Source: Planctomycetota bacterium (GTDB lineage Bacteria; Planctomycetota; B15-G4; SIAN01). From it: 64,000 bases of DNA. Position numbers and translations under genes: made by a program. This document shows positions 41,516 to 57,957 of the stretch, one piece after another. A model generated the notes under the pieces. The model was not told where the DNA came from, made no database searches, and saw only the letters and a list, made by a program, of their open reading frames with translations. The stretch covers positions 1 through 64,000 of the forward strand of contig JANNXA010000033.1 in NCBI GenBank assembly GCA_031409275.1, in the 5' to 3' direction. Position 1 is the first letter of the stretch. Every line of letters begins with the position of its first letter.

Positions 41516-41597
41516 GGCGACGGACAGTAGCGCGCGCGCCGCGGCTACAGTGCCCGCCTCGCAGCGGCCCGATCGCCGCGCGACAGGAGATCGATGG

Positions 41598-42446
41598 ATG
41601 ACGCCGCCGGCCGACAAGAGCGCACAGCAGCTCGCCAACAGCTTCGTCCTCGCCGAGCGTGACCTCGCCTTCCTGGCGCGTCCGGAGCTCCGGCCGATTC
41701 GCCTCCAGCTCGAGCTCCTGAAGCCTGACCTGATCATGCGCGAGCATGGCGTCGTCTCGACGGTGGTCGTCTTCGGCAGCGCGCGCGTGCCGGCGCCCGA
41801 AGATGTGACGACGCACGTCATGAAGGCGCAGGCCGCCGCGATCGAGCATCCCGACGACGTGGGTCGCCTGCGCCAGCTGCGCGCGGCGAAGTCGCTGGTG
41901 AAGTACGCCAAGTGGTACGCCGAGGCGCAGAAGCTCGGCGCGTTGATCTCTTCGTCATGCCAGGTCGGCCAGGAGTGCAAATACGTGATCATCACCGGCG
42001 GCGGGCCGGGGATCATGGAGGCGGCCAATCGCGGCGCGGCCGATGTCGACGCCAAGTCGATCGGCCTCAACATCGTGCTCCCCTTCGAACAGCGGCCGAA
42101 CCCCTACATCCATCCCGGTCTCTGCTTCAACTTCCACTACTTCGCGATGCGCAAGATGCACTTCTTGATGCGCGCGAAGGCGCTGGCCTTCTTCCCTGGC
42201 GGATTCGGGACGCTCGACGAGATGTTCGAGGCGCTCACGCTGATCCAGACCGGCAAGATCGCGCGCATGCCCTGCGTCCTTTTCGGCCGCGAGTTCTGGG
42301 ACAAGCTGATCGACTTCGAGTTCCTCGCCGATGAAGGGCTGATCTCGCCGGACGACCTCAACCTGATCGAGTTCGTCGAGACGGCGGAAGAGGGGTGGGA
42401 GCGGATCCAGGCGTTCTACGGCAATGGCAAGCAGGCGAAGCACTGA
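41598..42446 (+). CDS. LOG family (TIGR00730-type) nucleotide phosphoribohydrolase
   Basis: FGSAR, TGGGPGIMEAANRGA, RKMHF, PGGFGTLDE. Confidence 0.93.
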   Translation: MTPPADKSAQQLANSFVLAERDLAFLARPELRPIRLQLELLKPDLIMREHGVVSTVVVFGSARVPAPEDVTTHVMKAQAAAIEHPDDVGRLRQLRAAKSLVKYAKWYAEAQKLGALISSSCQVGQECKYVIITGGGPGIMEAANRGAADVDAKSIGLNIVLPFEQRPNPYIHPGLCFNFHYFAMRKMHFLMRAKALAFFPGGFGTLDEMFEALTLIQTGKIARMPCVLFGREFWDKLIDFEFLADEGLISPDDLNLIEFVETAEEGWERIQAFYGNGKQAKH

Positions 42447-42456
42447 GGAGCATGGC

Positions 42457-43500
42457 GTGGCGACGACGAAGACGCTCGGCATCGGGATCATCGGCACCGG
42501 CTGGGTCGCTGGCGCGCACGTCGACCATTGGAAGAAGGTCGCGGGCTGCGAAGTCGTCGCGGTCTGTTCGCGCGAGGAGGAGACGGCGCGCCGCTTCATC
42601 GCCGAGAAGGCGCTGCCGCACGCGGCGGCCTATGCCGATCGCGCGCGCTTCCTGAAGCACAGCGGCCTCGACGTGGTGGTGCTGGCGACGCCGCACCCCA
42701 ACCACCCGGCCGAGACGATCGCCGCCGCGAAGGCGGGCAAGCACATCGTGATCGAGAAGCCGGCGGCGCTCGATGCCGCCAGCTTGAAGAAGATGGTGGC
42801 GGCGGTGAACGCGGCCGGAGTGAAGACGAGCGTCTGCTTCGAACTGCGCTGGATTGGCCTGTTCAAGAACATCAAGGCCTACCTGCAGCAGGGGCTGCTC
42901 GGCGATGTGTTCCACGGCGAGGTGGCCTACAACCACGGTTGCGGCCCCTGGTACAAGCAGTGGGCCTGGAACATCAAGAAGGAGATCAGCGTTTCTGCCG
43001 AGCTGACCGCCGGCTGCCACGCGATCGACGCGCTGGTCTGGTTCATGGGGCGACGCGTGACCGAAGTCGCGGCGATGAAGTGCTTCTCGCCGAAGAACCC
43101 GCTGCAGTACGAGTACGCCCCCAACTCGACGGCGCTGTTCCGCTTCGAGGATGGCGCGACCGGCTCGGTCCACACGTCGATCGAGTGCCGCAACCCCTAC
43201 CACTTCCCGATCGTGCTGCAAGGCGACCGCGGCACCATCAACTACGACAAGCTCTACACGCTCGAATGGCCCGGACAGTCGACTTGGGCCACGATCCCCG
43301 CCGACCTCCCCGACTCCGGCAAGGTCGAGCACCATCCCTACCAGGGCCAGTTCGACCACTTCGCCGACTGCATCCGTCGCGACGTGCGCCCCGACAACGA
43401 CCTGAACGCGTGCGCCCACGTGCATGAGATCTGCTTCGCCATCGAGGAAGCGGCGGCCAGTGGCAGGACCGTCAAAGTGAAGCGCACCGCGGGGACGTGA
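42457..43500 (+). CDS. Gfo/Idh/MocA family oxidoreductase
   Basis: GIIGTGWVA, ATPH, GKHIVIEKP, HAID; GAGGAG RBS before the GTG. Confidence 0.92.
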   Translation: MATTKTLGIGIIGTGWVAGAHVDHWKKVAGCEVVAVCSREEETARRFIAEKALPHAAAYADRARFLKHSGLDVVVLATPHPNHPAETIAAAKAGKHIVIEKPAALDAASLKKMVAAVNAAGVKTSVCFELRWIGLFKNIKAYLQQGLLGDVFHGEVAYNHGCGPWYKQWAWNIKKEISVSAELTAGCHAIDALVWFMGRRVTEVAAMKCFSPKNPLQYEYAPNSTALFRFEDGATGSVHTSIECRNPYHFPIVLQGDRGTINYDKLYTLEWPGQSTWATIPADLPDSGKVEHHPYQGQFDHFADCIRRDVRPDNDLNACAHVHEICFAIEEAAASGRTVKVKRTAGT

Positions 43501-43527: not shown

Positions 43528-44895
43528 TCAGCGCGGCCCGCCCTCGGGGCAGCACCGCTCGAGCGCGCTCTCGCGCTGCATCTGCAGGTGGCGCAGGCGC
43601 TCGGCTGGCGAGGGCGGCGCGAAGGTGACCGGATGCGACAACGGTGGCGCCCGCTCGCGAAGCTCGCCGTAGATCGCGTCGAGCGCGGCCGCGTGGTCGG
43701 CGAAGGTGGGGGGCGGCGGCGGGCGCGCGGCGGCGAGCTGCGTTCGCAAGCGCGATTCGTCGAGGCAGCGGAGCAGGTCGCGCTCCAGCGCCGCGATGTC
43801 GCCGGCGCGATGGACGAGCGCACCGCCGCCGGCCCGCCGCGCCGGCGCACCGCTGTCGGAGAGCAGCGCCGGGATCCCGAGCTCGAAGCACTCATCGAGC
43901 ACGTAGCCGTGCGTCTCGAGGCAGGTCGAGGGGAAGACGCCGTAGTCGGGCGCGAGCGAGGCCAGCTGCGCGAAGATGAAGGGGCCGTGGAAGGAGATCG
44001 GTGCCGCGCCGGCCAGACCGCGCAACCGCGCTTCGAGCGCGTCGTCGGCGAACGCGCCCAGCAGGTGGAGCTCCGCGGCGACGCCCGGCCGCGCCGCGAG
44101 CGCGCGCGGGAACGCGGCGACCAGCTCGACGACTCCCTTGTGGGCTGCGAGGCGTCCCCAATAGGCGAAGCGGAGCGGGCGATCGAGCGCCGTCGTCGGC
44201 CGCCGCAAGCCATGCGGCGCATAGGGGAGCGGGAGCGCCGTGATCCGATCGCGCGGGAACGCGAGGCCCGCTGCGACCTGCTCGGCGACGAAGTCGGAAA
44301 TCGCCAGCACGGCGCCGGCGCGGTCGAGCTCGGCCAGGAACTGGCGACGATGGAGCTCGATGCCGATCGCGATCTCCTCCGGACGCTCATGGCCAAATCG
44401 GGGCACGCATGCGGCGCAGTTCTCCGTGGAGAGAGCGCGCGTGCACGGAGCGCCGTCGCGATCGACGCGGAAGCAGCGCGGGCACGAGGCGAGGAAGTCG
44501 TGCAGCGAGACGACGGTCGCGATGCCGCGTGCGGCGGCGCGCTCGACCAGGTCGGTCGTCAGGCGCATCCAGTGCTGCACGTGGACGACATCGGGTCGCT
44601 CGCGCTCGAGCAACTCGTCGAAGAGGCGGCCCGCTTCGGGATGCCAGAGCTTCGCGTGGTGGTCGAAGTAGAGGTCGTCGCGCACCAGACGGTGCACGCG
44701 CACGCCCTCGCGCTCCGCCGTCTCGAGGCGCGTCGTCGCGGCGCGCCGCCCGCTGCCGGCGAGGACCACCACGTCGTGGCCGCGCACGCGCTGCGCTGCG
44801 ACGAGAGCGCCGGCGTACGTCTCGACGCCGCCTGGCCCGTCGGGGGCGAAGGCGTTGACGCAGTGGAGGATCTTCAGCGCGGCGCTCGGTGCCAT
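43528..44895 (-). CDS. GT4 family glycosyltransferase
   Basis: GGVE, PDVVHVQH, LHDF…CP, GRLAAHKG, PSTCLETHGYVLDE. Confidence 0.9.
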   Translation of the reverse strand: MAPSAALKILHCVNAFAPDGPGGVETYAGALVAAQRVRGHDVVVLAGSGRRAATTRLETAEREGVRVHRLVRDDLYFDHHAKLWHPEAGRLFDELLERERPDVVHVQHWMRLTTDLVERAAARGIATVVSLHDFLASCPRCFRVDRDGAPCTRALSTENCAACVPRFGHERPEEIAIGIELHRRQFLAELDRAGAVLAISDFVAEQVAAGLAFPRDRITALPLPYAPHGLRRPTTALDRPLRFAYWGRLAAHKGVVELVAAFPRALAARPGVAAELHLLGAFADDALEARLRGLAGAAPISFHGPFIFAQLASLAPDYGVFPSTCLETHGYVLDECFELGIPALLSDSGAPARRAGGGALVHRAGDIAALERDLLRCLDESRLRTQLAAARPPPPPTFADHAAALDAIYGELRERAPPLSHPVTFAPPSPAERLRHLQMQRESALERCCPEGGPR

Positions 44896-44943
44896 GCGCG
44901 CTAGATAGCGCCCCTCCGCCCCCCGCTACCATCCGCCACCACG

Positions 44944-46059
44944 ATGGGCATCCCGACCAAGGACTATGGTCGCCAGCATCGCGCGCTGTGGAGCGAGCTC
45001 GCGGGCGAGATCGAGCGCTGCCTCTTCGGCGACGATCCGGTCCTCGGCGCGGCGGTCGAGGCGTTCGAGCGGGAGCTCGCCGACTACCACGGCGTCGCTC
45101 ATGCCGTCGGAGTGAACTGCGGCACCGACGCGATCGTGATGGCGCTGCGCGGCCTCGGCGTCCGCGACGGCGACGAGGTCGTCACCAGCGCACACACCTT
45201 CAGCGGTGTCGTCAGCGCGATCGTCCAGGCGGGCGGCGTGCCGCGCCTCGTCGAGCCCGAGCGCGAGACCATGGTGGTCGCGCGCGAGGCGCTGCAGGCG
45301 GCCTGCACGCCGCGCACGCGCGCCCTGCTGCCGGTCCACCTCTATGGCCAGCCGATCGACCTGGTCGGGTTGCGCGACTGGTGCACGGCGCGGGGCCTCG
45401 TGCTGATCGAGGATTGCGCTCAGGCGCACGGCGCGCGGCGCCGCGGCCGCAGCCTCGGGTCGTTCGGCCACGCGGCGGCGACCAGCTTCCACCCGAGCAA
45501 GAACCTCGGCGCGTTCGGCGACGGCGGGGCGGTCCTGACCGATGACGCGAACCTCGCGGCCGCGTTGCGCATCCGGCGCCATCTCGGCAAGGCCGGCAAG
45601 TACGAGATGGTGGCGATCGGTCCGAACAGCAAGCTCGACACGTTGCAGGCAGTGCTGCTGCGGGTGAAGCTGCGCCATCTCGACGAATGGGTCGAGCGGC
45701 GCGCCGCGTTGGCCGAGCGCTACCGCCGCGGCCTCGAGGGCGTCGGCGACCTGGTGCTGCCGCTGCCCGTTCGCGAGGCGGGGGCGCGCCACGCGTGGCA
45801 CCTCTACGTGGTCCGCTCGGCGCGGCGCGACGCCCTGCGCGAGTTCCTCGCGGAGCGCGGCATCAAGACGGGCATGCACTATCCGATTGCGGCGCACGAG
45901 CAGCCGGCGCTGCGCGACCGCTGCCTCGGCGGCCCGTTCCCGCTGGCGGCGGAGCTTGCCCGCACGGTCGTCTCGTTGCCGCTTTCACAGGAGCTGACCG
46001 AGGCGGAGATCGACGTCGTGATCGACGCGACTCGGCGCTTCTTCGCGACGGCCCCATGA
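44944..46059 (+). CDS. DegT/DnrJ/EryC1/StrS PLP-dependent aminotransferase
   Basis: PVHLYG, EDCAQAHG, SFHPSKNLGAFGDGG, NSKLD. Confidence 0.95.
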   Translation: MGIPTKDYGRQHRALWSELAGEIERCLFGDDPVLGAAVEAFERELADYHGVAHAVGVNCGTDAIVMALRGLGVRDGDEVVTSAHTFSGVVSAIVQAGGVPRLVEPERETMVVAREALQAACTPRTRALLPVHLYGQPIDLVGLRDWCTARGLVLIEDCAQAHGARRRGRSLGSFGHAAATSFHPSKNLGAFGDGGAVLTDDANLAAALRIRRHLGKAGKYEMVAIGPNSKLDTLQAVLLRVKLRHLDEWVERRAALAERYRRGLEGVGDLVLPLPVREAGARHAWHLYVVRSARRDALREFLAERGIKTGMHYPIAAHEQPALRDRCLGGPFPLAAELARTVVSLPLSQELTEAEIDVVIDATRRFFATAP

Positions 46060-47303
46060 GCGAGCGCGTCGTCTTCGTCGGCGGCGGCGTCTTCGCGGTG
46101 CGCTGGTTCGAGGCGCTCGCGGCCACGGCCGCTCCCGATGAGCTTGACCTGCGGTTGGTGGGACGCGACAAGTCGCGCCTCCATACGGTCGTCGCGCAGG
46201 CGCGCGCGCAGCTCGCGACGTCGCGGCCGAACTGGCGACTGGCGGCGGCGACCGATTTCGCAGCCGGCGTGCGTGGCGCGACGGTCGTCGTGCTGATGGC
46301 GCGGATCGGCGGACTCGAGGCGCGCGCCGCCGACGAAGCGCTCGCGCTGCGCCACGGGATGGCCGGCGACGAAGGGCTCGGAATCGGCGGGACCGCGAAC
46401 GGCTGGCGCACGTTGCCGGTCGTGCGCGCCTGGGCGGCGACGCTGCGGCGCGAGGCGCCCGACGCGTGGGTGGCCAACCTGATGGCGCCGCTCGGCATGA
46501 CGACGCGCGCGTTGCAGGAGGCGGGCGTCGCGGCGACCGGACTCTGCGAGCTGCCGCTGCTGACGCTGCAGGGTTGGCTCGCGAGCGTTCACGAGGAGCT
46601 CGGTGCAGCGCACGGCACCGACGACCTCGACTACGCCGGGCTCAACCATCTCGGCTTCTTCTGGCCGCGCAGCGAGCGCGGCGCCAAATGGCTCGCGGCG
46701 CTGGCGCGCGCCGGCGCCATCGACCCGCAGCTGCTCGCCACACTCGGCGGCGCACCGCTCCACTATTACGAGGCGCTGATCGAGCCGGCCGTCGGCGCGC
46801 GACGCGGCCGCTCGCGGCCGAACGGTCGCGCGCTCGCGTTGATTGAGCTGCGCGAGCGCGCGCTGGCGCGGATGCGCGCCGCACCGGGCGAGCCGGTGAC
46901 GGCGCTCGCCGAGCGGTCGACGCCATGGATCGATCGGCTGCTGGCTCCGACGGTCGCCGCGCTGCTCGCGGGTGAGCGGCTCGACGGCTTTTTCGACCTC
47001 CGCAACGGCGGCCTGCTGCCGAGCGTCTCCGCCGACGCGATCGTCGAGCTGCGGGCGACGCTCGATCGGGGCGGGGCGGCGGCCCGCGCGCCGCTCGCCA
47101 TGCCGGCGCCGATCGGCAAGTTCATCGCCGCCGCGGCAGAGTGGGAGGAGCGGAGCTATCGAGCTGCGCGGGATCGCGATCGAGCCGCGCTTCGCGAGGC
47201 GCTGCTCGCGTGGCCCGGTCCGTGGGAGCGGCGCCTCGGCGCACCGCTCGACGCGCTCGTCGACACCATCGCGACCGTCGAGCCGCCGGAGGACCCGAAG
47301 TGA
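46056..47303 (+). CDS. Family 4 glycoside hydrolase-like NAD/Mn-dependent protein (divergent)
   Basis: VGGG, RIGG…R..DE…G.EG.G.GG…RT.P, GLC, GLNH; ATGA overlap. Confidence 0.85.
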   Translation: MSERVVFVGGGVFAVRWFEALAATAAPDELDLRLVGRDKSRLHTVVAQARAQLATSRPNWRLAAATDFAAGVRGATVVVLMARIGGLEARAADEALALRHGMAGDEGLGIGGTANGWRTLPVVRAWAATLRREAPDAWVANLMAPLGMTTRALQEAGVAATGLCELPLLTLQGWLASVHEELGAAHGTDDLDYAGLNHLGFFWPRSERGAKWLAALARAGAIDPQLLATLGGAPLHYYEALIEPAVGARRGRSRPNGRALALIELRERALARMRAAPGEPVTALAERSTPWIDRLLAPTVAALLAGERLDGFFDLRNGGLLPSVSADAIVELRATLDRGGAAARAPLAMPAPIGKFIAAAAEWEERSYRAARDRDRAALREALLAWPGPWERRLGAPLDALVDTIATVEPPEDPK

Positions 47304-48262
47304 AACTGGGAGTTTGCGCACAGGCGCTACCGCGCACCTCGCTGGTCGCGGCGCTCGACGCGGCGCGCGACCTCGGGTTCGAGGCGATCGAGCTGCCGGT
47401 CGACGCCGCGAGCCCCTGGATCGACCTCGATGCCGCGCTGGCCGGCGGATGGCGGGTGATCGCCGCGGCGCTGCGTGAGCGAGGGCTCTCGCTGAGCGCG
47501 CTCTCGAACCATCAGGAGGGGCAGCTGCTGCTCGGGCCGCACGGCGAGGAGACGGCGGCGATCCATCGCGGCACTCCCGACGAGCAGGTCGCCTACGCGC
47601 TCCATCGTCTCCGCCAGACCGCCGAGCTGGCGCGCCGGCTCGAGGTCGACGTCGTCTGCGGCTTCACCGGCTGCTCGAACTGGACGCGCTTCTTTCCGTG
47701 GCCGCTGCGCGACGGCTGGGAGCAGATGGAGGCGCCGTTCCGCGAGCGGATGCGGCCGCTGCTCGACGACTTCGAGCGCCTCGGCGTCCGCTTCGCCCAC
47801 GAGTGCCACCCGCTGCAGTTCGCCTACAACACCGAGACGGCGGCGCGCGCGGTCGAGCTGCTCGACGGCCACCCAGCGTTCTGCTTCAACCTCGATCCCG
47901 CCAATCTGCTCCTGGTCGGGGTCGATCCAGTCCTGTTCGCGGTGGAGCACGGCGCGCGCGTCGTCCACGTGCACGGCAAGGACGGCGAGCTGGTCGCCCA
48001 TCACGCCGCGCGCTCCGGCCTGCTGGCGCACGGTCCCTGGCATCGATCGGGACGCGGCTTCCGCTTCCGCGTGCCGGGTTGGGGCGACGTGCCTTGGAGG
48101 CGCCTGATCAGCGAGCTGCAGCTCGCTGGCTTCCACGGCGTCATCGCGGTGGAGCACGAGGATCCGACCATGTCGGAACGAGAGGGGCTGCTGCAGGCGA
48201 TTCGCTTCCTGCAGCCGCTGCTGTTGCGTGATCCGCCGCCGGGGGAGCGCCGCTGGTGGTGA
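47300..48262 (+). CDS. Sugar phosphate isomerase/epimerase (xylose-isomerase-like TIM barrel)
   Basis: HECHP, NLDPAN, HVHGKD, PGWGDVPW, VEHED; GTGA overlap. Confidence 0.9.
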   Translation: MKLGVCAQALPRTSLVAALDAARDLGFEAIELPVDAASPWIDLDAALAGGWRVIAAALRERGLSLSALSNHQEGQLLLGPHGEETAAIHRGTPDEQVAYALHRLRQTAELARRLEVDVVCGFTGCSNWTRFFPWPLRDGWEQMEAPFRERMRPLLDDFERLGVRFAHECHPLQFAYNTETAARAVELLDGHPAFCFNLDPANLLLVGVDPVLFAVEHGARVVHVHGKDGELVAHHAARSGLLAHGPWHRSGRGFRFRVPGWGDVPWRRLISELQLAGFHGVIAVEHEDPTMSEREGLLQAIRFLQPLLLRDPPPGERRWW

Positions 48263-50166
48263 GCGACTCGTCCTCGGGCCGGAAGCCGCCGCGCGACGAG
48301 TTGCGCGACCAACCGAGCGACGAACCGCTCGATGTGGTGGCGCGCCTCGCCGACCACCAGCAGAACCTGTGGCCCGCGCCGCCGACACCGTCGCGGGTCG
48401 CTTTGCTGGCGTTGCCCTTGCCGCGAATCGTCGACGCACTGCTTGGCGCGGAGCGGGACACGGCGCGCTCCAACTGGCTCGCCGATCGCGCCGCGGAACT
48501 CGGAGGCGGCGACGGCCCGCTGCCGATCGTCGATCTTGGTGGTGAGTTCGCGCGGCTCGGCACGGCGAGCGCGACGTGTTCCCGGTTCGACGCGCGCCTT
48601 GACGCGCTCGGCGCGAGCGGCGTTCGTCGACTGATCGTGGTCGGCGGGCAGGAGAACCGTGGCTTCGCGCGAGCCGTCGCGGCGCGCTGGTCGGGCGAGC
48701 TGCAGCCGCTGCAGTGGCCGCTCGATGCTTGGCTGGCGAACGTGCCGGCGCTGCGCGACGACGAGCGGCCGCCGCCGGACGGTCGGCAGGCCGTACGCGC
48801 ATCCGATCCGGCTCGCCGTCTCGGTCCGTGGTGGGGTTTTGTGCCACCGCGCGCGCTTCTCGGGACGCGCGAAGGCGCGGAGCTGCGTGCCGCATGGCAG
48901 GCCTACTGGTGCGCGCGCGGCCGGCCCGACGCGGTGCGCTGCGCCGTCCTCGGGCTCGACTCCGACCTCGAGGCCGCGCTGCAAGTCGCGTCGTGCTCCT
49001 CCGATTCGCCGCCGCCGTCCGACCGTGCGGGCGCGCTCGCGCGCCACGTCGCCATCACCGGCCTCGACGGCGCCGGCAAGTCGACCCACGCCGCTCGCCT
49101 CGCCGCCGCGCAGGCGGCGCGCGGACGGCAGGTTGCCGTGGTGAAGATCTATCGGCAGGGCGCGTTCCTCGAGCTCGCCGGCGAGCTCGGCGCGCGAACG
49201 CGCCGCGGGGCTCCGCTCGCCGCCTTCCGCGTCTCCCGGCTCGTCAAGCTGATCGACAGCGCGCGCGTGCTCCGCGATCGCCTCGCGCCGATCGCCGGCA
49301 GCTGCGACCTGCTGCTGCTCGATCGCTGGCTCGAGACGCATGTCGCCGCGGCACGCAGCCAGCTCGGCTGGGATCTCTCCGGCCATCCGCTGCTCGCCGC
49401 GTTCCCGCACGTCGATCGGCGCTACTGGCTCGAGCTCGATCCCGCGCAGGCGATCGCGCGGCTCGATGCGCGGCCGGAACGTCGGAGTGCCGACGAGCAC
49501 GCGACTGGCTTGCGCGGCTACGCCCGCGAATTCAACCGCCTCGCCGTGGGGACGGGCGAGCGGCGCCTCGCCGCCAGCGCGCCGATCGAGGAGAACGCGG
49601 CGCGGCTCCTCGCCGAGGTCGACACGCTGCTCGGTCCGCCGCGCGCCGGCGGAGCCGTCGTGGCGATCGAGAATGCGGCGCCGCCGCGACTGCCTTTCGA
49701 TCCCGCGCGCGAGCGCTGCGCGGTCCACCTCGGCGCGGCGACCGACGGGAGCGAGCTCGGTCGCGACCTCTTCGCGCTGCGCGCCGATCTGCGTCAGCGG
49801 TCAGGCGCGGTGCTCGACGGGCTGCCGGAGGCGACATGGATCGAGGCGTATGCGGCGGAGCTGCTGTTGGCGCTCGCGACGACGCGGCCGCGCCGCGCCG
49901 CCGTCGCGCTGTGGCCCGCGGCGTTGGCGCTGATGGAGGAGCTCGGCGACCTGCCGATGCTCGACGAGCTCGCGCGGATGGTCGAGGCCGAGACGATCGT
50001 CGGGTCGTGGGGCGATCGCGTTGAGGTCGAGCGTGCCGCGGCGGAGGCGTTCCGCGCGTTTGGCTTCGCGCCGCGTGGCGCCGAACGGTTCGCCGCGAGC
50101 TACGGCGACTCGTTGCGCGCGCTGTCGCGAGCGTGGAGTGCCGCGCCGATCGCGCCCGCCTCGTAG
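48259..50166 (+). CDS. Multidomain protein with central thymidylate-kinase-like P-loop domain
   Basis: TGLDGAGKST, LLDRW, LDPAQAIARL..R; flanking regions unrecognised; GTGA overlap. Confidence 0.75.
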   Translation: MSDSSSGRKPPRDELRDQPSDEPLDVVARLADHQQNLWPAPPTPSRVALLALPLPRIVDALLGAERDTARSNWLADRAAELGGGDGPLPIVDLGGEFARLGTASATCSRFDARLDALGASGVRRLIVVGGQENRGFARAVAARWSGELQPLQWPLDAWLANVPALRDDERPPPDGRQAVRASDPARRLGPWWGFVPPRALLGTREGAELRAAWQAYWCARGRPDAVRCAVLGLDSDLEAALQVASCSSDSPPPSDRAGALARHVAITGLDGAGKSTHAARLAAAQAARGRQVAVVKIYRQGAFLELAGELGARTRRGAPLAAFRVSRLVKLIDSARVLRDRLAPIAGSCDLLLLDRWLETHVAAARSQLGWDLSGHPLLAAFPHVDRRYWLELDPAQAIARLDARPERRSADEHATGLRGYAREFNRLAVGTGERRLAASAPIEENAARLLAEVDTLLGPPRAGGAVVAIENAAPPRLPFDPARERCAVHLGAATDGSELGRDLFALRADLRQRSGAVLDGLPEATWIEAYAAELLLALATTRPRRAAVALWPAALALMEELGDLPMLDELARMVEAETIVGSWGDRVEVERAAAEAFRAFGFAPRGAERFAASYGDSLRALSRAWSAAPIAPAS

Positions 50167-51020
50167 CCGCTGCGCGCCCGCTCCACGCGCGTCGCCGTGC
50201 CGATCTCCGCCATCGCGTCGCGTTGCATCGCCGCTTCCACGGCGGAAACGAAGCCGGAGTCGAGCTCGACGACGCCGCCGCCGAGCACCAGGAGCGGCAG
50301 CGCCAGCAGGTTGGTCGCGCTCGCCAGCGCGCCGCCGAGCGCAGCCGCCGCCGTCGCGAGGGCCGCGGCGACGCGCGGGGCGTCCGCTACGGCGGCGTCC
50401 GCGAGTCCGCCCTTCGCCAGTCCGAGCTGGCGCTCGATCGCGCCACCCGACGCGATGGCGCCGATGCAGCCGCGCCGTCCGCACGCGCACTCGGGGCCGT
50501 TGCGATCGACGGAGAGGTGGCCGATTTCGCCGGCGAGACCGCCCTGCCCCGGCCAGAGTTCGCCGCGCAACACCAGGGCGCCGCCGATGCCCGTGCCGAC
50601 CGCGAGGAAGAGGAAGTCGCGATCGGCGCCCTCGCGGACGGCGAGCTCGGCGCGCGCCGCTTGATGGACGTCGTTGTCGAGGCAGACCGGCAGCGCGAGC
50701 CGCTCGGCCAGCTGCGCCGCAAGCGGCACCTCGCGCCACTCGCGCAGGATCACCGAGCTGCGCGCGACGCCGCGCGCCGAATCGACAAGGCCGGGGAATC
50801 CGATGCCCGCTGCGCGCGCCCGGTGAGTGGGCGCCAGCGCCGCGAGCTGCTCCGCCAGCGCCGCCATCGCCTCGACCACGCGAGCCGGCGAGCCGGCGGG
50901 GGTCGCGACGCGCTGCTGGGCGACGATGCGGCCGGCCGCGTCGACCAGCGCGGCGAGGAGCTTCGTCCCGCCGAGGTCGAATCCGAAGGTCGCGAGCCCG
51001 CCGCCGTGCTCAGCCGGCAT
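50100..51020 (-). CDS. ROK family kinase
   Basis: DLGGTK, GFPG, DND, GTGIGGA, AGEIGH, CACGRRGC. Confidence 0.92.
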   Translation of the reverse strand: MPAEHGGGLATFGFDLGGTKLLAALVDAAGRIVAQQRVATPAGSPARVVEAMAALAEQLAALAPTHRARAAGIGFPGLVDSARGVARSSVILREWREVPLAAQLAERLALPVCLDNDVHQAARAELAVREGADRDFLFLAVGTGIGGALVLRGELWPGQGGLAGEIGHLSVDRNGPECACGRRGCIGAIASGGAIERQLGLAKGGLADAAVADAPRVAAALATAAAALGGALASATNLLALPLLVLGGGVVELDSGFVSAVEAAMQRDAMAEIGTATRVERARSGYEAGAIGAALHARDSARNESP

Positions 51021-52161
51021 GCGCAACCCGAGCGCGGGGGCGAGGCTCCGTCCGCGCCATCGCGGCCGAGACGGCAGCGGCGAGCTCCGCGCCGTCCACT
51101 TCGTCGATCGTCACCGACGTGGCGGAGGTCGGCAGGACGTAGTGGAGCCGGTTGCCGCGCACCAGGCGGATCGCCGCAAGCCGGTCGAGCGCTGCGCACA
51201 GCCGCTCCGGCGCGACGGGCGGCGGAAGCTCGAAGCGGGCGAGCAGTGCGACGATGCGGTCGCGGTCGATTTCCGTGCAAAGGCCGCGGGCGCGGGCGAG
51301 CTCGAGGGCGACGATCAGCCCCCACGCGACCGCTTCGCCGTGCAGGATCCCCTCGTAGCCGAGCTCGGTCTCGAGCGCGTGGCCGAAGGTGTGGCCGAGG
51401 TTCAGCGGGCGGCGCAGGTCGCGCTCGTACGGGTCGCCGGCCAGCAGCTCGATCTTCTTCGCCGCCGAGCGGGCGACGACTTTCGTCAGCGCCGCGGGGT
51501 CGCCCGCGAGCAGGCGACGCGCGTCGCTCTCGAGCGTCTCGAGGAGGGGCAGGTCGCCGATCATCGCGACCTTCACCGACTCGGCGAGACCGGCGGCGAG
51601 CTGACGTCGATCGAGCGTGTGCAGCGTCTCCGGGTCGATCCAGACGTGCTGCGGATGGTGGAACGCTCCGAGGAAGTTCTTCGCCCACGGCGCGTTGACG
51701 GCGACCTTTCCGCCGATGGAGGCGTCGTGCTGCGCGAGCAGCGTGGTCGGCACGTTGGCGTACGCGATGCCGCGCATGTAGGTCGCGGCGACCATGCCGC
51801 CGAGGTCGCAGACGACGCCGCCGCCGACGTTGACGATCACGCCGCGCCGATCGAGGCCGGCGGCTTGCAACTCGCCGACGAGCCGCTGCCACTGCTCGAC
51901 GCTCTTCGACGCCTCGCCCGCCGGCACGACGTGGAGCGTGGCGATCCGCCCGTTCGCATGCAGGGCGGAGCGAAGCGGTTGCGCGTAGAGCGGCGCGACG
52001 CCGTCGTCGCTCAGCAGCGCGAGGCGAGCGCCCGGGAAGCGCTCGTCCAGCAGCGCCGGCAGCTCGCCGAGAAGGCCGCGCCGGATCTCGACCGTGTAGC
52101 GACGGTGGGCATCGGCCGATACCTCGAGCTTGGAACGCGGCTCCATCGGCTCAGCCTCCAT
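51010..52161 (-). CDS. Sugar-phosphate cyclase of the DHQS superfamily (possibly a sedoheptulose-7-P cyclase)
   Basis: GEASK, GGGVVCD, RG, PTTLLAQHDASIGGK, KN, E..K, LNLGHTFGH, HGEAV; lacks the C-terminal DKK; alternative start 52146. Confidence 0.88.
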   Translation of the reverse strand: MEAEPMEPRSKLEVSADAHRRYTVEIRRGLLGELPALLDERFPGARLALLSDDGVAPLYAQPLRSALHANGRIATLHVVPAGEASKSVEQWQRLVGELQAAGLDRRGVIVNVGGGVVCDLGGMVAATYMRGIAYANVPTTLLAQHDASIGGKVAVNAPWAKNFLGAFHHPQHVWIDPETLHTLDRRQLAAGLAESVKVAMIGDLPLLETLESDARRLLAGDPAALTKVVARSAAKKIELLAGDPYERDLRRPLNLGHTFGHALETELGYEGILHGEAVAWGLIVALELARARGLCTEIDRDRIVALLARFELPPPVAPERLCAALDRLAAIRLVRGNRLHYVLPTSATSVTIDEVDGAELAAAVSAAMARTEPRPRARVAHAG

Positions 52162-53227
52162 CGGCGACGGCGGCATAGTCGCAGCCGCGGCAGAGGAACC
52201 CGGCCTCGAACTCCTGGCGCAGGTGGCGCGCGCGGATCGCCCGGTAGCGATCGCCGCTCCAGACGTCGGCGATGCCGATCCCGGCCGCGGGATCGATGCG
52301 GCCGACCACCGCGGCGCGATTCCAGTCCACGTTGCAGAGCACGCAGGTTCCATCCCAGAGGACGTAGAGCTTGACGAAGGGACGCTGGCAAAGCGGCGGC
52401 GCCTTGGCGGTGGGCGCGACGGCGCTGCTGGCGAGCCCGGGATCGACGCCCGCGACGGTGCGCTCATTCGAGAAAGCCTTGAGCAGCACGTGGTCGCGGT
52501 ATAGCGGATCGGCCGAGGGGAGTGTCGCGGCGAGCTCGGGCAGGTCGCCCATGACGACCTTGAGGCGCATCGCGCCGAGGCGACCGTTGGGCGCGCGGCC
52601 GAACAGCTCGCGCAACCGGCGGTCGACGGCGGAGAACGAGAGCCCCTCCATCACCTCCTCGTAGCGCGTCGCTTCGAAGCCGTGCACGCTGACGCAAAGC
52701 TCGTCGAGCCCCGCCGCCGCGAGCCGCTCGGCCAGGTCGAGGCGCAGCAGCGCTCCGTTGCTGAACAGGTTGAGCGTCGTGCCGGGAAGCGCGCGCCGCG
52801 CCGCGGCGATCCACTCGACCATGCGCGAGTCGAGCAACGGCTCGTTCATCAGGAACAGCGAGAGGCGCTCGACCGGATGGAGCGTCAACTCGGCGAGGAG
52901 CGCGTCGTAGAGCGCGCGGCTCATCTCGCCGTGCTCGAAGCCGGGGGCGCGCGTGACGAGTGGGTGGGGACACATGCGGCAGGCGGCGTTGCAGCGAGTG
53001 GTGGTCTGCAGCTGCACCTTGAGTGGGAACGGCGGCAGGAGGGCGGCGATGTCCGCCTCCGTCGCGCCGCCGGTGCGGAACGCGGTGGCGGTGCGCAGTA
53101 GCGCGCTCTCGCGTTCGCTGATCGTCGCTCGATCGAAGGGCCGCATCCGGTTCCTCGCGGGGCGGGTGCCACGAGGCGCGCCCGACGGCCCATCGATAGC
53201 ACGGAAACGCACGGGCGCGCCCATCAT
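52151..53227 (-). CDS. Radical SAM enzyme with SPASM/Twitch domain
   Basis: CNAACRMC; MNEPLL; C-terminal CQRP…DG.CVLC…CRGC; start 53227 (ATGA overlap) or 53146. Confidence 0.92.
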   Translation of the reverse strand: MMGAPVRFRAIDGPSGAPRGTRPARNRMRPFDRATISERESALLRTATAFRTGGATEADIAALLPPFPLKVQLQTTTRCNAACRMCPHPLVTRAPGFEHGEMSRALYDALLAELTLHPVERLSLFLMNEPLLDSRMVEWIAAARRALPGTTLNLFSNGALLRLDLAERLAAAGLDELCVSVHGFEATRYEEVMEGLSFSAVDRRLRELFGRAPNGRLGAMRLKVVMGDLPELAATLPSADPLYRDHVLLKAFSNERTVAGVDPGLASSAVAPTAKAPPLCQRPFVKLYVLWDGTCVLCNVDWNRAAVVGRIDPAAGIGIADVWSGDRYRAIRARHLRQEFEAGFLCRGCDYAAVADGG

Positions 53228-54399
53228 CCGGGTCGTGACGCGGATGGGCGCGCCCCGTTCGTGGCGCGACCGCGCGTCGCCGCCTGCTCGAGCGCGAGGC
53301 TGCGGACGACGACTCCGTTCAACGGCTCGAGGCAGGCGATCGCATCGCGCCCGACCCAGCGGAAGTTCGACAGATCGGCGCGCAGCCGCGTCGGGTCGAC
53401 GTCGAGCGCGAAGACGTGGTGGCGAACGATGCGCCGCCGGGCAACGTCGACGTCGTCGAAGTTCCCGATCGCGATGGGCGCCGCATCGGCGAGGCCGAGC
53501 TCCTCGTCGAGCTCGCGCGCCATCGCGGCGGTCGGGGTCTCGCCGGGCTCGAGCTTGCCGCCCGGCGTGTCCCAGAGCCCCGGATGGCTTGCGGCATCAG
53601 CCGTGCGTTGCTCCAGCAGGAGCGCGTCGCCGTGGCGCAGCAGCGCGCCGCAGACCGTCAGCGCCGGCGCGTCGGTGAGGCGTTCGAAGGCGTCGACGTG
53701 GCGGGCGAGCAGCGCCTCGGCGCGCTCGAGGTCGCGCGCGTCGTTCACGTCGATCCAGGGCGCGGCGTGCAGGTGGGCGTGGATCCGCTCGCCGCGCGCG
53801 CGCAGCGCCTCGAAGAGCGCGGGGAGCGGGCAGGGGCGATCGCGTGGGATCGCGGCCAGAGCCAGAGGGCCGAGCACCGAGAGGGCGCTGCAGATCAGGG
53901 CGTCGTGCGTCGGTTTCTCGCGGTAACCGGTGACGTCGTCGCCGTCGATCTCCAGCACGCCCCACGGGATCGTGAACGGCTCGCGATGGACGGCGAGGGT
54001 CAATGCGGCGCCCGAGTCGGAGTGTTCGCGGAGCAGCGCTGCGAGATCGACGGCGGTGAGGTTGTCGGCGTTGACCACCAGCAACGCCTCGGCTCGGCCG
54101 GCCCACTCCGCCGCGGCCCCGATCGTGCCGCTCGGCGTCATCTCGACCTGCACCTCGAGCGCAGCGCCGAGCGCCTCGGCGAGCGGCCGCACGCGCTGCT
54201 CGACGAAGGCGCGCAGCTCCGGGCGCGCGGCCGGAACGACGACGGCGAGGTCGCGCAGCCCGGCGCGCAGCAGCGCCAGCACGTTCCGCTCCAGCAGCGG
54301 GACCCCGCGCACGGCGACCAGTGGCTTGATCGTCGCCGCGCCGCTCTCGCGCATGCGGCTGCCCATCCCGCCCGCCTGCACCAGCGCGACCGTCCTCAT
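53224..54399 (-). CDS. Nucleotidyltransferase fused to NUDIX hydrolase
   Basis: AGGMGSRM…KPLV, GTIGA, NAD, EKP, WIDV; Nudix box GGKLEPGETPTAAMARELDEELG. Confidence 0.9.
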   Translation of the reverse strand: MRTVALVQAGGMGSRMRESGAATIKPLVAVRGVPLLERNVLALLRAGLRDLAVVVPAARPELRAFVEQRVRPLAEALGAALEVQVEMTPSGTIGAAAEWAGRAEALLVVNADNLTAVDLAALLREHSDSGAALTLAVHREPFTIPWGVLEIDGDDVTGYREKPTHDALICSALSVLGPLALAAIPRDRPCPLPALFEALRARGERIHAHLHAAPWIDVNDARDLERAEALLARHVDAFERLTDAPALTVCGALLRHGDALLLEQRTADAASHPGLWDTPGGKLEPGETPTAAMARELDEELGLADAAPIAIGNFDDVDVARRRIVRHHVFALDVDPTRLRADLSNFRWVGRDAIACLEPLNGVVVRSLALEQAATRGRATNGARPSASRPG

Positions 54400-54764
54400 C
54401 GCGGGAGCGTCGCCTCGAAGACGAAGAGGCGCAGCGGGTCGGCGCCGTCGTTGACCAATCCGTGCGTGCCACCCGGTCGATTGCGGATGAGGTCGCCGGC
54501 GACGACGCGGAAGCTCTCCCCGTCGCGCTCCATGCGGCCGCTGCCGGACAGCACCAGATAGAACTCCTCCTCGTCGTCGGCGTGCTGGTGGCGGCCGATC
54601 GAGGCCCCGGGCGGCAACTCGGCGAGGTCGATGAAGTTCAGTGCGCCGGAGAGCTGCTGCCGCTCGGCGACGCGGCAGAAGGCGATCGTGCCGTCGCCGT
54701 GATGCGCCTGGACGCGTTCGAGTGGGAGCTTCCCGAGGTTGCAGCGATCGAACGGGCGACGCAT
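54396..54764 (-). CDS. Cupin domain protein
   Basis: IGRHQHADDEEEFYLVLSGSG and GTHGLVN metal-binding motifs. Confidence 0.9.
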   Translation of the reverse strand: MRRPFDRCNLGKLPLERVQAHHGDGTIAFCRVAERQQLSGALNFIDLAELPPGASIGRHQHADDEEEFYLVLSGSGRMERDGESFRVVAGDLIRNRPGGTHGLVNDGADPLRLFVFEATLPR

Positions 54765-55062
54765 GGGCAGCGCTCCGCGCGTGGCCTGTCGTGCGGGTCG
54801 ACGCGGATCCTACATGCGATCCACTCCTTCCCTTCCGTCTCGCATGGCGCAACCCAGACTTACATCCGCGATGTCTGCCCGACCGCGCGCACCGTCGACG
54901 AATGCGCGCACGGCGGCGCGGCTCACGCCCTGGCGCGCCCCTCTCGCTCGGGCCGTTCTTCCGCCCGTGTAACGCCTCCGCCCGGAACCGGGTGTTACGG
55001 GCGGTGCCGCAGCGGCGGCGCTCGCGATGCGCTTCTCTTCTTCCGGCAACCGGAGCGACCCG

Positions 55063-56625
55063 ATGCACGCCACCCATTCGATCCCCGCCACGAGGAAGCT
55101 CGCGATCGCGGCGTACGCGGTCGGGATCCTTGGCCTTTCGAGCCGCTCCGCCGCTGGCCAAGCGACCGAGCAGCAGTCGATCGCACCCGCGATCGCCAGC
55201 TGGTCGCAGTACTTCGGCAAGGCACTGGCGGTGAGCAACGACTACCTGGTCGTCGGCGCGCCGCTGCGCGCATCGCCGATCCCGTTCGTCGTCCCCGGCG
55301 GCGCCGACGTCTTGCGCCGCGATCCGGTCACCGGCCTCTGGCACGCGGAGGCGAGCCTGTCCGGCAGCACTGCGGGCAACGGCGCGGCGTTCGGCGCGGC
55401 CGTCGCGGTCGATGGCGACGTCGTCGTGGTCGGCGCGACCGGCCAGGCGTCGTCGACGGCCGCTCGTGCCGGTGTCGTCTACGTGTTTCGCCGCGACGCG
55501 GCCACCGGATCGTGGATCGAGGAGCAGGAACTCGAGGGGAGTGCGTCGGGCCTGGACGGCCTGTTCGGCGCGTCGGTGGCCATCGACGGCGACGTGATCG
55601 TCGTCGGGATGCCTGGCTATGCGAGCAGCACCGGCGCGGCCTTCGTGTTCCGTTATCAGCCGGCGTCGAGCGTGTGGGTCGAGGAGGCCTTGCTGCTCGA
55701 TCCCAACGGTTTCGCCGGTGATCGAGCCGGCCTGGATGTTGCGATCGATGGCTCGACGATCGCCGTCGGTTCGCCGATGCAGGGCACGCTGCCTTACCCG
55801 ACGGGAACGGTCGGCGTCTGGACCGCCAGCGGAACGAGCTGGACGCAGGCGCAGGAGCTGACGCCGAGCAGCGCGACCACGACACCGCTGCGGCTCGGCA
55901 CGTCGCTGGAGCTGCGCGGCAATCAGCTGCTCGTCGGCGCGCCGGGCGAGTCGAACGCCACGACGCAGTACATCGGCGCCGCCTACCTCTTCGAGCGCGA
56001 CGGCTCGACGTTCAGCCAGACCGCGCACTTCGAGCCACCGGCGACGTACTACAACCTCAACTTTGGCCTTGATGTCGCCGTGAATGGCAACACGGTCGTG
56101 ATCGGCCAGCCGATCGACTGGGTGAATCCGGCGATCTCCGGCTCGGCGTGGGTCTTCCGCCGTCGAACCGCCAGCAAGCCGTGGGTCGCGGATCAGATGC
56201 TGATCCACGCCGGCGGCGGCCCCGACGACCAGTTGGGTGCCACGGTCGCGATGAGCGATCACCACATCGTGCTCGGCGCGCGCTACTCGAACAAGTACGG
56301 CCAGGACGAGGGCCTCGTCGCGAGCTACGACAAGGAGGAACTCTCGCTGTCGATCTCGCCGCGCTACCCGGCGCCGGACGCGACGATCGACCTCGAGGCG
56401 CACCGCGGGAATCCGGGCGAACTGATCCTGATCGCCGTCGAAGAGATCAGCGGCGCGCAGCTCTTCATTCCGCTGCTCACCGACGTCTTCCAGGCGAACT
56501 ACGCCTACGCGGTGCAGGACAGCGCGCCCAACCCGGCGCTCGGCCTCTCCGTCGGCGTGCGCGCCTACAAGCTCAGCGCGACCGGCAAGCTGGTGGCGTC
56601 GAGCCTCGAGTACGTCGATCTGTGA
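55063..56625 (+). CDS. FG-GAP (VAxDGD..VVGA type) beta-propeller protein with shared C-terminal domain
   Basis: Signal peptide; repeats FGAAVAVDGDVVVVGA, FGASVAIDGD, G.AYVF; alternative start 55027. Confidence 0.9.
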   Translation: MHATHSIPATRKLAIAAYAVGILGLSSRSAAGQATEQQSIAPAIASWSQYFGKALAVSNDYLVVGAPLRASPIPFVVPGGADVLRRDPVTGLWHAEASLSGSTAGNGAAFGAAVAVDGDVVVVGATGQASSTAARAGVVYVFRRDAATGSWIEEQELEGSASGLDGLFGASVAIDGDVIVVGMPGYASSTGAAFVFRYQPASSVWVEEALLLDPNGFAGDRAGLDVAIDGSTIAVGSPMQGTLPYPTGTVGVWTASGTSWTQAQELTPSSATTTPLRLGTSLELRGNQLLVGAPGESNATTQYIGAAYLFERDGSTFSQTAHFEPPATYYNLNFGLDVAVNGNTVVIGQPIDWVNPAISGSAWVFRRRTASKPWVADQMLIHAGGGPDDQLGATVAMSDHHIVLGARYSNKYGQDEGLVASYDKEELSLSISPRYPAPDATIDLEAHRGNPGELILIAVEEISGAQLFIPLLTDVFQANYAYAVQDSAPNPALGLSVGVRAYKLSATGKLVASSLEYVDL

Positions 56626-56649
56626 GCGGTCGCGGGAGCGGTCGCTCGC
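56622..56649. terminator. Hairpin between convergent genes
   Basis: GTGAGCGGTCGC-GGGA-GCGGTCGCTCGC, a 12-bp stem with G-U pairs and a GNRA loop; no U tract. Confidence 0.35.
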
Positions 56650-57957
56650 TCACGCCAGCAGCGGTTGGATCGCCTTGCCGTTCGGGTCGATCAGCGTGAT
56701 GGGGCGCTTGCCGGCGTGGAAGAGCCTGGTGCTGTCGAGTCGCAGGGCGGCGCCGAGCGTGGCGAAGAGGTCGGCGACTTGCGTCGGCTTGTCCGCGATC
56801 TCGGTGCCGTGCTGGTTGGTGGCGCCGTACGCCTGGCCGCCTCGAATGCCACCACCGGCGAGCGCGACGCACCAGTTGTTGGGCCAGTGGTTGCGGCCGC
56901 CGCTGCCCGTGACTTCGGGCGTGCGACCGAATTCGCCCATGCAGACCACCAGCGTGTCGGCCAGCATTCCGCGCTTGTCGAGGTCGTCGAGCAGCGTCGC
57001 GAACGCCGGGTCGAGCTGCTGGTTCAACGCCTGCACGCGGTTGCGATTGTCGTCGTGGGTGTCCCAGCCGCTCAGCACGACCTGCACCGCCTGCACGCCG
57101 TTCTCCAGAAGGCGTCGCGCCAGGAGCACGCCCTGCCCGAACGGGTTGCGGCCGTAGCTGTCGCGCAGCGCCTCCTTCTCCTGCTCGAGGTCGAACGCGG
57201 TGAGCAGTTTGGTGTCCATCAGTCGGCGGGCGCGCGCTCGCTGCGACTGGTTGGCGGCGACGGCCGGCTCGCCGCCGCGGCGCGCAAACGCGTCGTCGAG
57301 CACTTCGACCATGTCGCCGCGATGGTCGAGGCGGTTCTTGTCGACGCCCCCGGCGTAGGAGAGGTTCTCGATCTTTCCTTCGGGGCGATCGAGCACGAAG
57401 GGCGACGCGCCGACGCCGAGATAGCCGGCGGAGAGCGGCGCGCCGTTGATCTGCACGAAGGCGGGCAGGTCGTGCGCGAGGTCGCCGAGTTCATGCGCGA
57501 CGATCGAGCCGAGCGATGGAAACGTGACCGTCGGATTGGGCACGTAACCGCATTGCACCAGTGCGCGCGCTCGCGAGTGGTTGCCTTCCCGCGACGTCAT
57601 GCTGCGGATCACGGCGAGGCGCTTCGCCCGTTTGGCCAGCAATGGCAGCGAATCGGCGAAGGTCCAGCCCGCGACGTCGGTCGCGATCGCGCTCACGCCA
57701 CCGGCGGTGGGGGCGCCCGGCTTCGGATCGAAGGTGTCGAGCTGCGACGGCCCGCCTTCCAGCCACAGCACGATCAGCCGGCGCTTGCCGCTGCCGCGCG
57801 TGGCACCGCCCTGCTGTCCGAGCGCGTCCTGCGCGAGCAGCGACACCAGCGAGGGCGCGACGGCGAGCGTGCCGGCGCCTTGGGCCAGGAGCGCCAGCAA
57901 CTCGCGGCGGCTGAAGGTGCGCGTGCCGGGCGGCAGCGATCGAGGAGTGGAGTGCAT
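56650..57957 (-). CDS. DUF1501 domain protein (Tat)
   Basis: FSRRELL; WLEGGPSQLDTFDPK, GWDTH, GEFGRTP, GRNHW. Confidence 0.93.
   Translation of the reverse strand: MHSTPRSLPPGTRTFSRRELLALLAQGAGTLAVAPSLVSLLAQDALGQQGGATRGSGKRRLIVLWLEGGPSQLDTFDPKPGAPTAGGVSAIATDVAGWTFADSLPLLAKRAKRLAVIRSMTSREGNHSRARALVQCGYVPNPTVTFPSLGSIVAHELGDLAHDLPAFVQINGAPLSAGYLGVGASPFVLDRPEGKIENLSYAGGVDKNRLDHRGDMVEVLDDAFARRGGEPAVAANQSQRARARRLMDTKLLTAFDLEQEKEALRDSYGRNPFGQGVLLARRLLENGVQAVQVVLSGWDTHDDNRNRVQALNQQLDPAFATLLDDLDKRGMLADTLVVCMGEFGRTPEVTGSGGRNHWPNNWCVALAGGGIRGGQAYGATNQHGTEIADKPTQVADLFATLGAALRLDSTRLFHAGKRPITLIDPNGKAIQPLLA

Follow-up and report, generated by a model that had tools for sequence, protein, structure and literature searches.

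A conserved and uncharacterised gene cluster for a probable C7-cyclitol, with an EVS-type cyclase, in an uncultured planctomycete

Gene content and layout of the locus

The window analysed here, a stretch of 64,000 nucleotides, opens contig C33 of the 5.6-Mb, 93% complete genome (G000) of an uncultured freshwater bacterium. Among named proteins, its nearest homologues carry the label Planctomycetes (P0002, 81%; P0121, 69%). The window contains a real, conserved C7-cyclitol cluster, so far uncharacterised, whose cyclase is of the EVS type. The cluster is recognised by features that were observed directly, namely its gene content, the conservation of its genes together, a separate housekeeping aroB, the EVS-type motifs of the cyclase, intact catalytic-type motifs and the folds of the enzymes. 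It is compact and complete-looking, and it is conserved in soil bacteria as well as in different families of an uncultured class of planctomycetes. One diabetes drug and one crop fungicide are C7-cyclitols, and the end products of EVS-type cyclases are known in few cases.

All eleven open reading frames claimed by a first-pass annotation of this DNA were recovered, at the positions and in the families that it named (Pfam, NCBIfam). The plus-strand operon starts with an aminotransferase of the DegT/DnrJ/EryC1/StrS family dependent on pyridoxal phosphate (371 aa, 44944-46059), which likely aminates a keto-cyclitol. It is followed by a GH4-fold enzyme dependent on nicotinamide adenine dinucleotide (NAD) and metal (415 aa, 46056-47303), predicted to carry out a redox or elimination step on a 7-phospho-cyclitol, by a xylose-isomerase-like TIM barrel (320 aa, 47300-48262), a predicted beta-hydroxyketone dehydratase/hydratase, and by a kinase fusion (about 635 aa, 48259-50166), which profile and fold comparison divides into an alpha/beta N-domain, a P-loop kinase of dTMP-kinase fold (residues 259-463) and a C-domain, here called Y. 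The minus-strand operon runs from a cupin (122 aa, 54396-54764), a predicted cyclitol epimerase or ketol isomerase, through a GMPP/MurU-like nucleotidyltransferase fused to a NUDIX hydrolase (391 aa, 53224-54399), a radical S-adenosylmethionine (SAM) enzyme with a short SPASM domain of the twitch type (331 aa, 52151-53146), predicted to be a BtrN-like alcohol dehydrogenase, and the cyclase, of dehydroquinate synthase (DHQS) fold (378 aa, 51010-52146), to a ROK-family kinase (306 aa, 50100-51020), a predicted cyclitol 7-kinase. Lastly, a GT4 (GT-B) glycosyltransferase of a Cys-motif subfamily (455 aa, 43528-44895, minus strand) diverges from the aminotransferase gene across a gap confirmed at 48 bp. 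The Pfam families at the locus are GT4, DegT (2e-97), GH4 (PF02056 and PF11975), AP_endonuc_2, ROK, DHQ_synthase, Radical_SAM with SPASM, NTP_transferase with NUDIX and Cupin_2, together with a weak Thymidylate_kin match below the cut-off.

The translational coupling proposed for both operons holds for most junctions, which overlap or nearly touch: the overlap is 4 bp between the aminotransferase and GH4 genes, between the GH4 and TIM-barrel genes, between the TIM-barrel and kinase genes and between the cupin and nucleotidyltransferase genes, and 11 bp between the cyclase and ROK genes, and 4 bp separate the radical SAM and cyclase genes. It probably fails between the nucleotidyltransferase and radical SAM genes, where a 78-bp gap is the likelier reading because the homologues of the radical SAM enzyme start at 53146. 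As the annotation had reported, neither an aroK, aroE or aroA gene beside the cyclase nor an exporter gene was seen in the 64-kb window. The guanine-plus-cytosine (GC) content of the single genes is 0.70-0.77, compared with 0.694 genome-wide, and at third codon positions it is 0.87-0.93, as in the neighbouring genes; since the codon-position GC matches that of the neighbours, nothing points to a recent acquisition from elsewhere. A promoter scan gave no signal above chance. Among sequencing runs, none of RNA was listed, and four DNA runs come from a single study of freshwater sediment, two of which may be the source.

Recurrence in genomes and metagenomes

The gene set recurs together both in relatives and in metagenome loci, as the aminocyclitol reading of the annotation required of a functional unit. 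The TIM barrel, which is the best-conserved gene of the cluster (55-94% identity across carriers) and its best marker, occurs in 6 of the 42 genomes of the class (five families, the present genome included) and in 6 of the 401 genomes sampled from the phylum, of which two lie outside the class. In the seven other carriers that were compared, the cyclase, cupin, ROK kinase, aminotransferase, GH4-fold enzyme, radical SAM enzyme, TIM barrel, kinase, NUDIX domain and flanking GT4 are invariably present, and the nucleotidyltransferase is present in six. Five carriers hold a single operon in the order cyclase, cupin, (nucleotidyltransferase), ROK kinase, aminotransferase, GH4, radical SAM, TIM barrel, X, kinase, Y and NUDIX, in which the genes X and Y (L105:6102-7106 and L105:3968-4519, both on the minus strand; also in L107, L108 and L116) have no Pfam match; G009 has the same set split in two, and G004 has the layout of the window.

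A scan of soil and water metagenomes with an alignment of the kinase fusion retrieved 17 loci, mostly short, and at least one other cluster gene accompanies the fusion in 15 of them (TIM barrel 12, ROK 10, cyclase 9, GH4 9, aminotransferase 5, radical SAM 3, nucleotidyltransferase 3, cupin 2, GT4 1), mostly in the layout of the window. One of these loci (L132) holds two extra NAD-dependent epimerase/dehydratases, one of them fused to the cyclase. Named homologues of the fusion, available as proteins only, include Kofleriaceae and Myxococcales. Such a patchy distribution is as expected for an accessory surface trait.

Plasmid searches did not turn up the cluster; H6 and H11, two GH4 neighbourhoods, were rejected as being without cyclitol genes, and H33 as a different EVS-like cluster. 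Likewise, a GH4 match in G057 (4.7e-24) was not counted, because its 7.5-kb contig carries nothing else of the cluster. One Streptomyces plasmid locus (L139; NZ_CP109456.1, ~203,900-214,800) combines an EVS-like cyclase with a thiamine-diphosphate enzyme, adenylation and condensation domains, an NDP-sugar synthase, a BadF kinase, an inositol monophosphatase and a NUDIX protein. Literature searches, with subscription papers and MIBiG outside their scope, returned no description of the cluster.

The cyclase and its companion enzymes

The window cyclase is not the sole aroB of its genome: a second DHQS-family gene with canonical motifs lies on contig C51 (~38,420-39,560; L003:8423-9562). The DE[RK]E and DKK motifs, which occur together in all 19 canonical rows of the alignment, are both present in the C51 aroB and both missing from the window cyclase, which scores 297.8 against the cut-off of 305 of the aroB model (TIGR01357, NCBIfam). 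Each of the four cluster-bearing relatives tested (G004, G018, G073 and G416) also has two DHQS-family genes, and a search for such a gene in the cluster-free G001 found none. The housekeeping aroB is without other shikimate genes nearby and has an apparent folC, a Ser/Thr kinase gene and dprA as neighbours. Among the matches listed in a cyclase scan of the genome collection were distant DHQS genes, mostly from Acidobacteriota; 14 of 80 were aligned, all of them canonical AroB, and these served as outgroup only.

The positive assignment comes from motifs. For comparison, the sequences of Amir_2000 (Actinosynnema mirum) and Staur_3140 (Stigmatella aurantiaca) were used, which we take to be the assayed EVS enzymes. 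In the source data consulted (PMC4426668, supplement file 1), both carry DP[YF]E.DLRR.LN and R[LQ][VI]R, and the two blocks are present in the window cyclase, whose C-terminal block reads RLVR, as in Staur_3140. In the alignment, DP[YFH]E is found in the window and in 14 of the 15 other locus cyclases, with DPCE in G009. The EEVS/DDGS block EL.PNL.E ... D[FY]GHTF / A[FY]GHTW, present in the EEVS/DDGS rows of that portion of PMC4426668 and in an acarbose-type cluster (L141), is missing from the window cyclase, for which the EEVS/DDGS structures 4p53 and 5tpr are weak PDB matches and the DOIS structure 2d2x is the weakest of 16. By its motifs, the enzyme is therefore best called EVS-type and not EEVS, DOIS or AroB, and it is predicted to convert sedoheptulose 7-phosphate.

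In quick trees, of which Amir_2000 and Staur_3140 were not members, the cluster cyclases form a subclade of their own (support 95 in one tree and 84 in the other), nested in an EVS-like group (Shimodaira-Hasegawa-like approximate likelihood ratio test 91, then 90), apart from AroB (94). P0058 from Solirubrobacter soli, which by eye matches an entry labelled EVS in the consulted PMC4426668 data, groups with them and is ~45% identical to the window cyclase. The EVS-type assignment is a best call and not proven, because an approximately unbiased (AU) test does not reject the grouping of the cluster cyclases with AroB (p=0.206) and both assayed enzymes lie outside the tree; moreover, reading function off such cyclase trees is described as unsafe in the accessible part of PMC5133447. 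Since the subclade is separate, the product may not be 2-epi-valiolone. A new type of cyclase, with another substrate or ring product (e.g. from hexose 6-phosphate or another heptulose phosphate) and hence a different cyclitol skeleton, would account for the subclade and the AU result, and also for the His that in window-type cyclases replaces the usual Val before the NAD-binding Asp and that neither Amir_2000 nor Staur_3140 has in the consulted data. EboD sets a precedent: its predicted substrate was sedoheptulose 7-phosphate (PMC5133447), and the sugar that it later proved to cyclise was mannose 6-phosphate (PMC12904256), according to the accessible parts of both sources. We nonetheless consider a new type improbable, given the presence of both EVS-like motif blocks, a cupin in common with an EEVS cluster and the last place of DOIS among the structural matches. 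Membership of the ebo cluster itself, in which EboD stands with a UbiA prenyltransferase and EboA-F partners (PMC12904256, same part), was ruled out, as no UbiA gene is among the Pfam and NCBIfam matches of the window.

The cupin provides the best outside link to C7-cyclitol chemistry. Over 102 aa it shares 53% identity (E 7e-32) with the cupin encoded immediately after the sedoheptulose 7-phosphate cyclase (EEVS) in the acarbose-type cluster on the Streptomyces plasmid NZ_CP107895.1. In that cluster (L141, ~144,200-162,300), the cupin gene lies between those of the cyclase and the aminotransferase. The ROK kinase (Pfam, 1e-54) is 38% identical to the ROK protein of an acarbose-type cluster. 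The radical SAM enzyme has BtrN as its best, distant PDB match (9e-12), and its CxxxCxxC motif and four C-terminal Cys are kept in 11 copies. The aminotransferase matches 2oga (2e-87) and QdtB (3frk, 2e-76) ahead of the DOI aminotransferases (4e-30 and 9e-26), which places it nearer to sugar C3-aminotransferases than to BtrR on sequence comparison.

The only solved relatives of the TIM barrel are 2zds (3e-35) and the 2-hydroxy-3-keto-glucal hydratase 8ro4 (3e-22), and its kinship to a keto-glucal (enone) hydratase fits the loss of water beside a ketone. The GH4-fold enzyme has 6-phospho-beta-glucosidases as its nearest PDB entries; the motifs GLCELP, GxNH and PLxY and two Arg are kept in 15 cluster copies, which, aligned to 1s6y and 5c3m, hold the NAD-binding start, the Cys/His, the Tyr and the Arg of the family; in the window protein, Ala takes the place of the second Asn in the NP motif. 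In GH4 enzymes the Cys and His bind the metal, the Tyr is the catalytic base and the Arg binds the phosphate, and the reaction proceeds by oxidation, elimination, addition and reduction; because this chemistry needs no ring oxygen, it could act on a carbocycle. The genomic setting suggests a role other than 6-phospho-glycoside hydrolysis. The same kinships, together with the ROK kinase, the aroB-model score of the cyclase and a Gfo/Idh/MocA oxidoreductase gene that adjoins the GT4 gene (42457-43500, plus strand), could also describe a catabolic locus that degrades unusual glycosides by oxidation, elimination and hydration and that includes a redundant dehydroquinate synthase. We regard this as very improbable: no transporter or regulator gene stands in the cluster, the cyclase, nucleotidyltransferase, aminotransferase, radical SAM enzyme and GT4 are biosynthetic, a canonical aroB exists, and the Gfo/Idh/MocA gene, rejected as a part of the cluster, is 5.7 kb off in G004 and absent at the other six loci.

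The gene annotated as a TMK-like kinase indeed encodes a dTMP-kinase fold, set however in a three-part fusion and not in a plain kinase. Its predicted structure is confident, residues 259-463 match dTMP kinases best, and the nucleoside monophosphate kinase fold with a P-loop and a DR motif is present; the Thymidylate_kin score is 23.4 bits in the window, against a cut-off of 27, and 42-46 bits in relatives. Domain Y is a separate gene in some relatives, and the window fusion, which ends with Y, seems to begin with the last helix of X. A profile comparison gave no support for either the N- or the C-domain as a second TMK copy (probability <1%), the C-domain profile had no match in the PDB, and the N-domain model (predicted local distance difference test 70) had no Foldseek match at E<=0.001 and no Atlas match. 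The best models of the nucleotidyltransferase are mannose-1-phosphate guanylyltransferase and MurU, both below cut-off (NCBIfam); the catalytic-type motifs of the nucleotidyltransferase-NUDIX protein are kept in 10 copies, and its two parts are separate genes in five relatives.

Around the cluster, the Gfo/Idh/MocA gene and a LOG/SLOG-family gene (together 41514-43500, plus strand) converge with the GT4 gene, and the comparison with the loci of relatives led to the rejection of the LOG/SLOG-family gene, too, as a cluster member. Farther out on that side lie two proteins of 1498 and 598 aa with FG-GAP-like repeats and low GC (0.62-0.64), possibly a separate acquisition (31965-38047, plus strand), a protein with an APP1-type phosphatidate phosphatase domain (38609-40123, minus strand) and a diverged ArgJ-like gene (~40454-41400, minus strand; Pfam). 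On the other side, the region 55027-59732 starts with an FG-GAP repeat protein, after which comes a gene pair that presumably is of the planctomycete DUF1553/DUF1501 type, as judged by its motifs.

Predicted product and comparison with known systems

As far as the available portions of the two sources describe the acarbose pathway, AcbC, AcbM, AcbO, AcbL and AcbN lead to valienol 7-phosphate (PMC7081202), after which AcbU phosphorylates position 1, AcbJ takes off the 7-phosphate, AcbR forms GDP-valienol and AcbS joins this donor to an amine (PMC9200736). Because the cluster has neither a HAD-type phosphatase nor a sugar 1-kinase, the corresponding slots of that route are open to other folds. 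Our preferred reading, to which we give a little less than an even chance, is that the cluster makes an aminated C7 carbasugar, akin to the acarbose and validamycin cores, from sedoheptulose 7-phosphate, likely activated with GDP and probably added by the GT4 to a surface glycan. Specifically, the cyclase would convert sedoheptulose 7-phosphate to 2-epi-valiolone, the cupin would epimerise C1/C2 or isomerise the ketol, the ROK kinase would phosphorylate C7, and the TIM barrel would remove the C5 hydroxyl to give an enone. The radical SAM enzyme would oxidise a ring hydroxyl to the ketone that the aminotransferase then aminates, and the GH4-fold enzyme would act on the 7-phosphate in a redox or substitution step that depends on NAD. 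A second phosphate would come from the dTMP-kinase fold, the NUDIX domain would remove the unwanted one, and the nucleotidyltransferase would make the GDP donor from which the GT4 would transfer the sugar to the surface glycan. The GH4, dTMP-kinase and NUDIX folds would thus fill the slots of AcbN, AcbU and AcbJ, and these three are the weakest of the assignments. The model fixes neither the order of the steps nor the site of the amine, and a nucleotide may be the true substrate of the kinase. In favour of the model, fusions seen in carriers and in one named homologue join the late enzymes into a chain (GH4-TMK in P0180, TMK-Y-NUDIX in G025, Y-NUDIX in G018 and G416, nucleotidyltransferase-NUDIX in the window and G004).

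Of the two destinations first proposed, a secreted metabolite and a surface glycoconjugate, the latter is the better supported, though the matter is not decided. A GT4 flanks the cluster in 8 of 8 genomic copies, and its subfamily is that of a Wzm/Wzt locus, in which paralogues lie beside ABC2_membrane (Wzm) and Wzt_C genes (G000:C49 ~93,100-111,300; L143). In a tree of 35 GT4s, the flanking ones are not one clade: five stand together (99), that of the window stands with two close relatives, that of G009 falls among the orthologues from the Wzm/Wzt locus, and two stand alone, a polyphyly that we read as repeated recruitment from the surface-glycan set. The conserved Cys suggest a metal site in this subfamily. 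Besides GT2s, the C49 locus encodes four Cys-motif GT4s, one of them flanked by two PIG-L deacetylases, and its GT4s are kept across the family. Beyond the cupin gene of the window lies the relic of a second GT4 (54786-54908, plus strand; 71% identity over 31 codons to the second GT4 of G004), which has lost its start codon and most of the gene, with a short further piece following in frame; this second GT4 is intact in G004 and L122 and falls in the five-member, cluster-linked clade. Between its GT4 and Gfo genes, G004 (L104:16195-20000, L121:58-1752) has three genes that are missing there in the window, among them one for a PMT_2 membrane glycosyltransferase and one for a protein with a carboxypeptidase regulatory domain.

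Beside the standing of the cyclase in the trees and the AU test, with the possibly different product that they imply, several observations weigh against a GDP-activated surface sugar. The Wzm/Wzt locus and its GT4s are also found in family members without the cluster; no GT4 is present at the visible cluster end of L127, L132 and L137, within at least 3 kb past the outer gene; in the genome studied here, the GT4 belonging to the main cluster-linked clade is gone; and G416 (90% complete, 2 contigs) keeps the GT4 with no nucleotidyltransferase detected either in the locus or genome-wide by a G073 query. The kinase domain has its closest kin among dTMP kinases and retains an aromatic/Arg pair that in those enzymes binds the base, so that a nucleotide fits better as its substrate than a cyclitol hydroxyl. 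The fusions of late enzymes, being fusions of neighbouring genes, are weak evidence of step order. Lastly, known pseudoglycosyl transfer mostly requires an amine acceptor, according to the part of PMC9200736 consulted.

The GT4-free metagenome ends, the G416 genome and the dTMP-kinase kinship would be easier to explain if, after the same early chemistry, the product were a soluble aminocyclitol or pseudo-disaccharide (validoxylamine-, kirkamide- or aminoglycoside-like), with the aminocyclitol as the acceptor of the GT4 or with the GH4-fold enzyme as the coupling enzyme, and with the TMK and NUDIX parts recycling or sanitising nucleotides. GT4 enzymes that glycosylate (amino)cyclitols exist, as BtrM and MshA do, and the validoxylamine route of A. 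mirum presumably starts from its EVS; that species makes validoxylamine A by a route of its own (PMC12904256, accessible part). A soluble product appears unlikely all the same, as the flanks examined in relatives hold no conserved exporter, regulator or resistance gene, the GT4s belong to the surface-glycan subfamily and are not GT20/VldE-like, and the nucleotidyltransferase is retained in 7 of 8 genomes.

The boldest form of the preferred reading, which is doubtful in our judgement, is a widespread pathway with an enzyme set almost wholly unlike that of acarbose, in which GH4 redox or coupling chemistry, a cyclitol kinase of dTMP-kinase fold, a NUDIX phosphatase and a dehydratase of enone-hydratase fold would lead to a GDP-amino-carbasugar in a Wzm/Wzt-exported polysaccharide, serving as a hydrolase-proof or glycosidase-inhibiting surface mimic. 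If true, it would give new jobs to the GH4, dTMP-kinase and NUDIX folds and open a route to carbasugar-bearing surface glycans that the glycosidases of phages and predators could not cut by the usual mechanism.

Among known systems, the EVS enzymes Amir_2000 and Staur_3140 share the DHQS fold and, in the consulted PMC4426668 data, the two motif blocks with the window cyclase, whereas the cluster cyclases stand in a separate subclade with different neighbours and their activity is predicted here. The oxidation-elimination-hydration catabolism of glycosides (8ro4 hydratase, GH4 phospho-glucosidases) provides homologues of the TIM barrel and the GH4-fold enzyme, which in the cluster belong to a biosynthetic set without transporters and with an adjoining dehydrogenase that is not conserved. 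The kirkamide K-cluster of Burkholderia leaf symbionts reportedly includes a GH4-type enzyme and a cupin as well. In the accessible part of its description (bioRxiv 10.1101/2022.09.27.509721), it resembles the present cluster in being compact and in its C7-cyclitol cyclase, ROK protein and aminotransferase, and differs in having an EEVS and a HAD hydrolase, with no radical SAM enzyme, TMK fold or NUDIX protein named there.

The first-pass annotation had seen a mixture of two logics at this locus. That of 2-deoxystreptamine (BtrC, BtrR, BtrN) stands in part: a radical SAM enzyme nearest to BtrN and a DegT aminotransferase are present, whereas a DOIS-type cyclase and a BtrR-type aminotransferase are not. 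That of acarbose (acb) and validamycin (val/vld) stands through the EVS motifs and the cupin match, and the cyclase, ROK-type kinase, nucleotidyltransferase, aminotransferase, GT-B enzyme and acarbose-type cupin all have counterparts there, although the nucleotidyltransferase is only ~28% identical to an acarbose-type one. An EEVS, a HAD phosphatase, a GT20/GT5 pseudoglycosyltransferase and an exporter are neither among the cluster genes nor conserved in relatives, there are no dTDP-deoxysugar genes, and the radical SAM enzyme, GH4, TIM barrel, dTMP-kinase fold and NUDIX domain are additions. The cluster thus works like the acarbose and validamycin pathways without being a member of them, and, its logic being that of known pathways, it is less surprising than a wholly new system would be.

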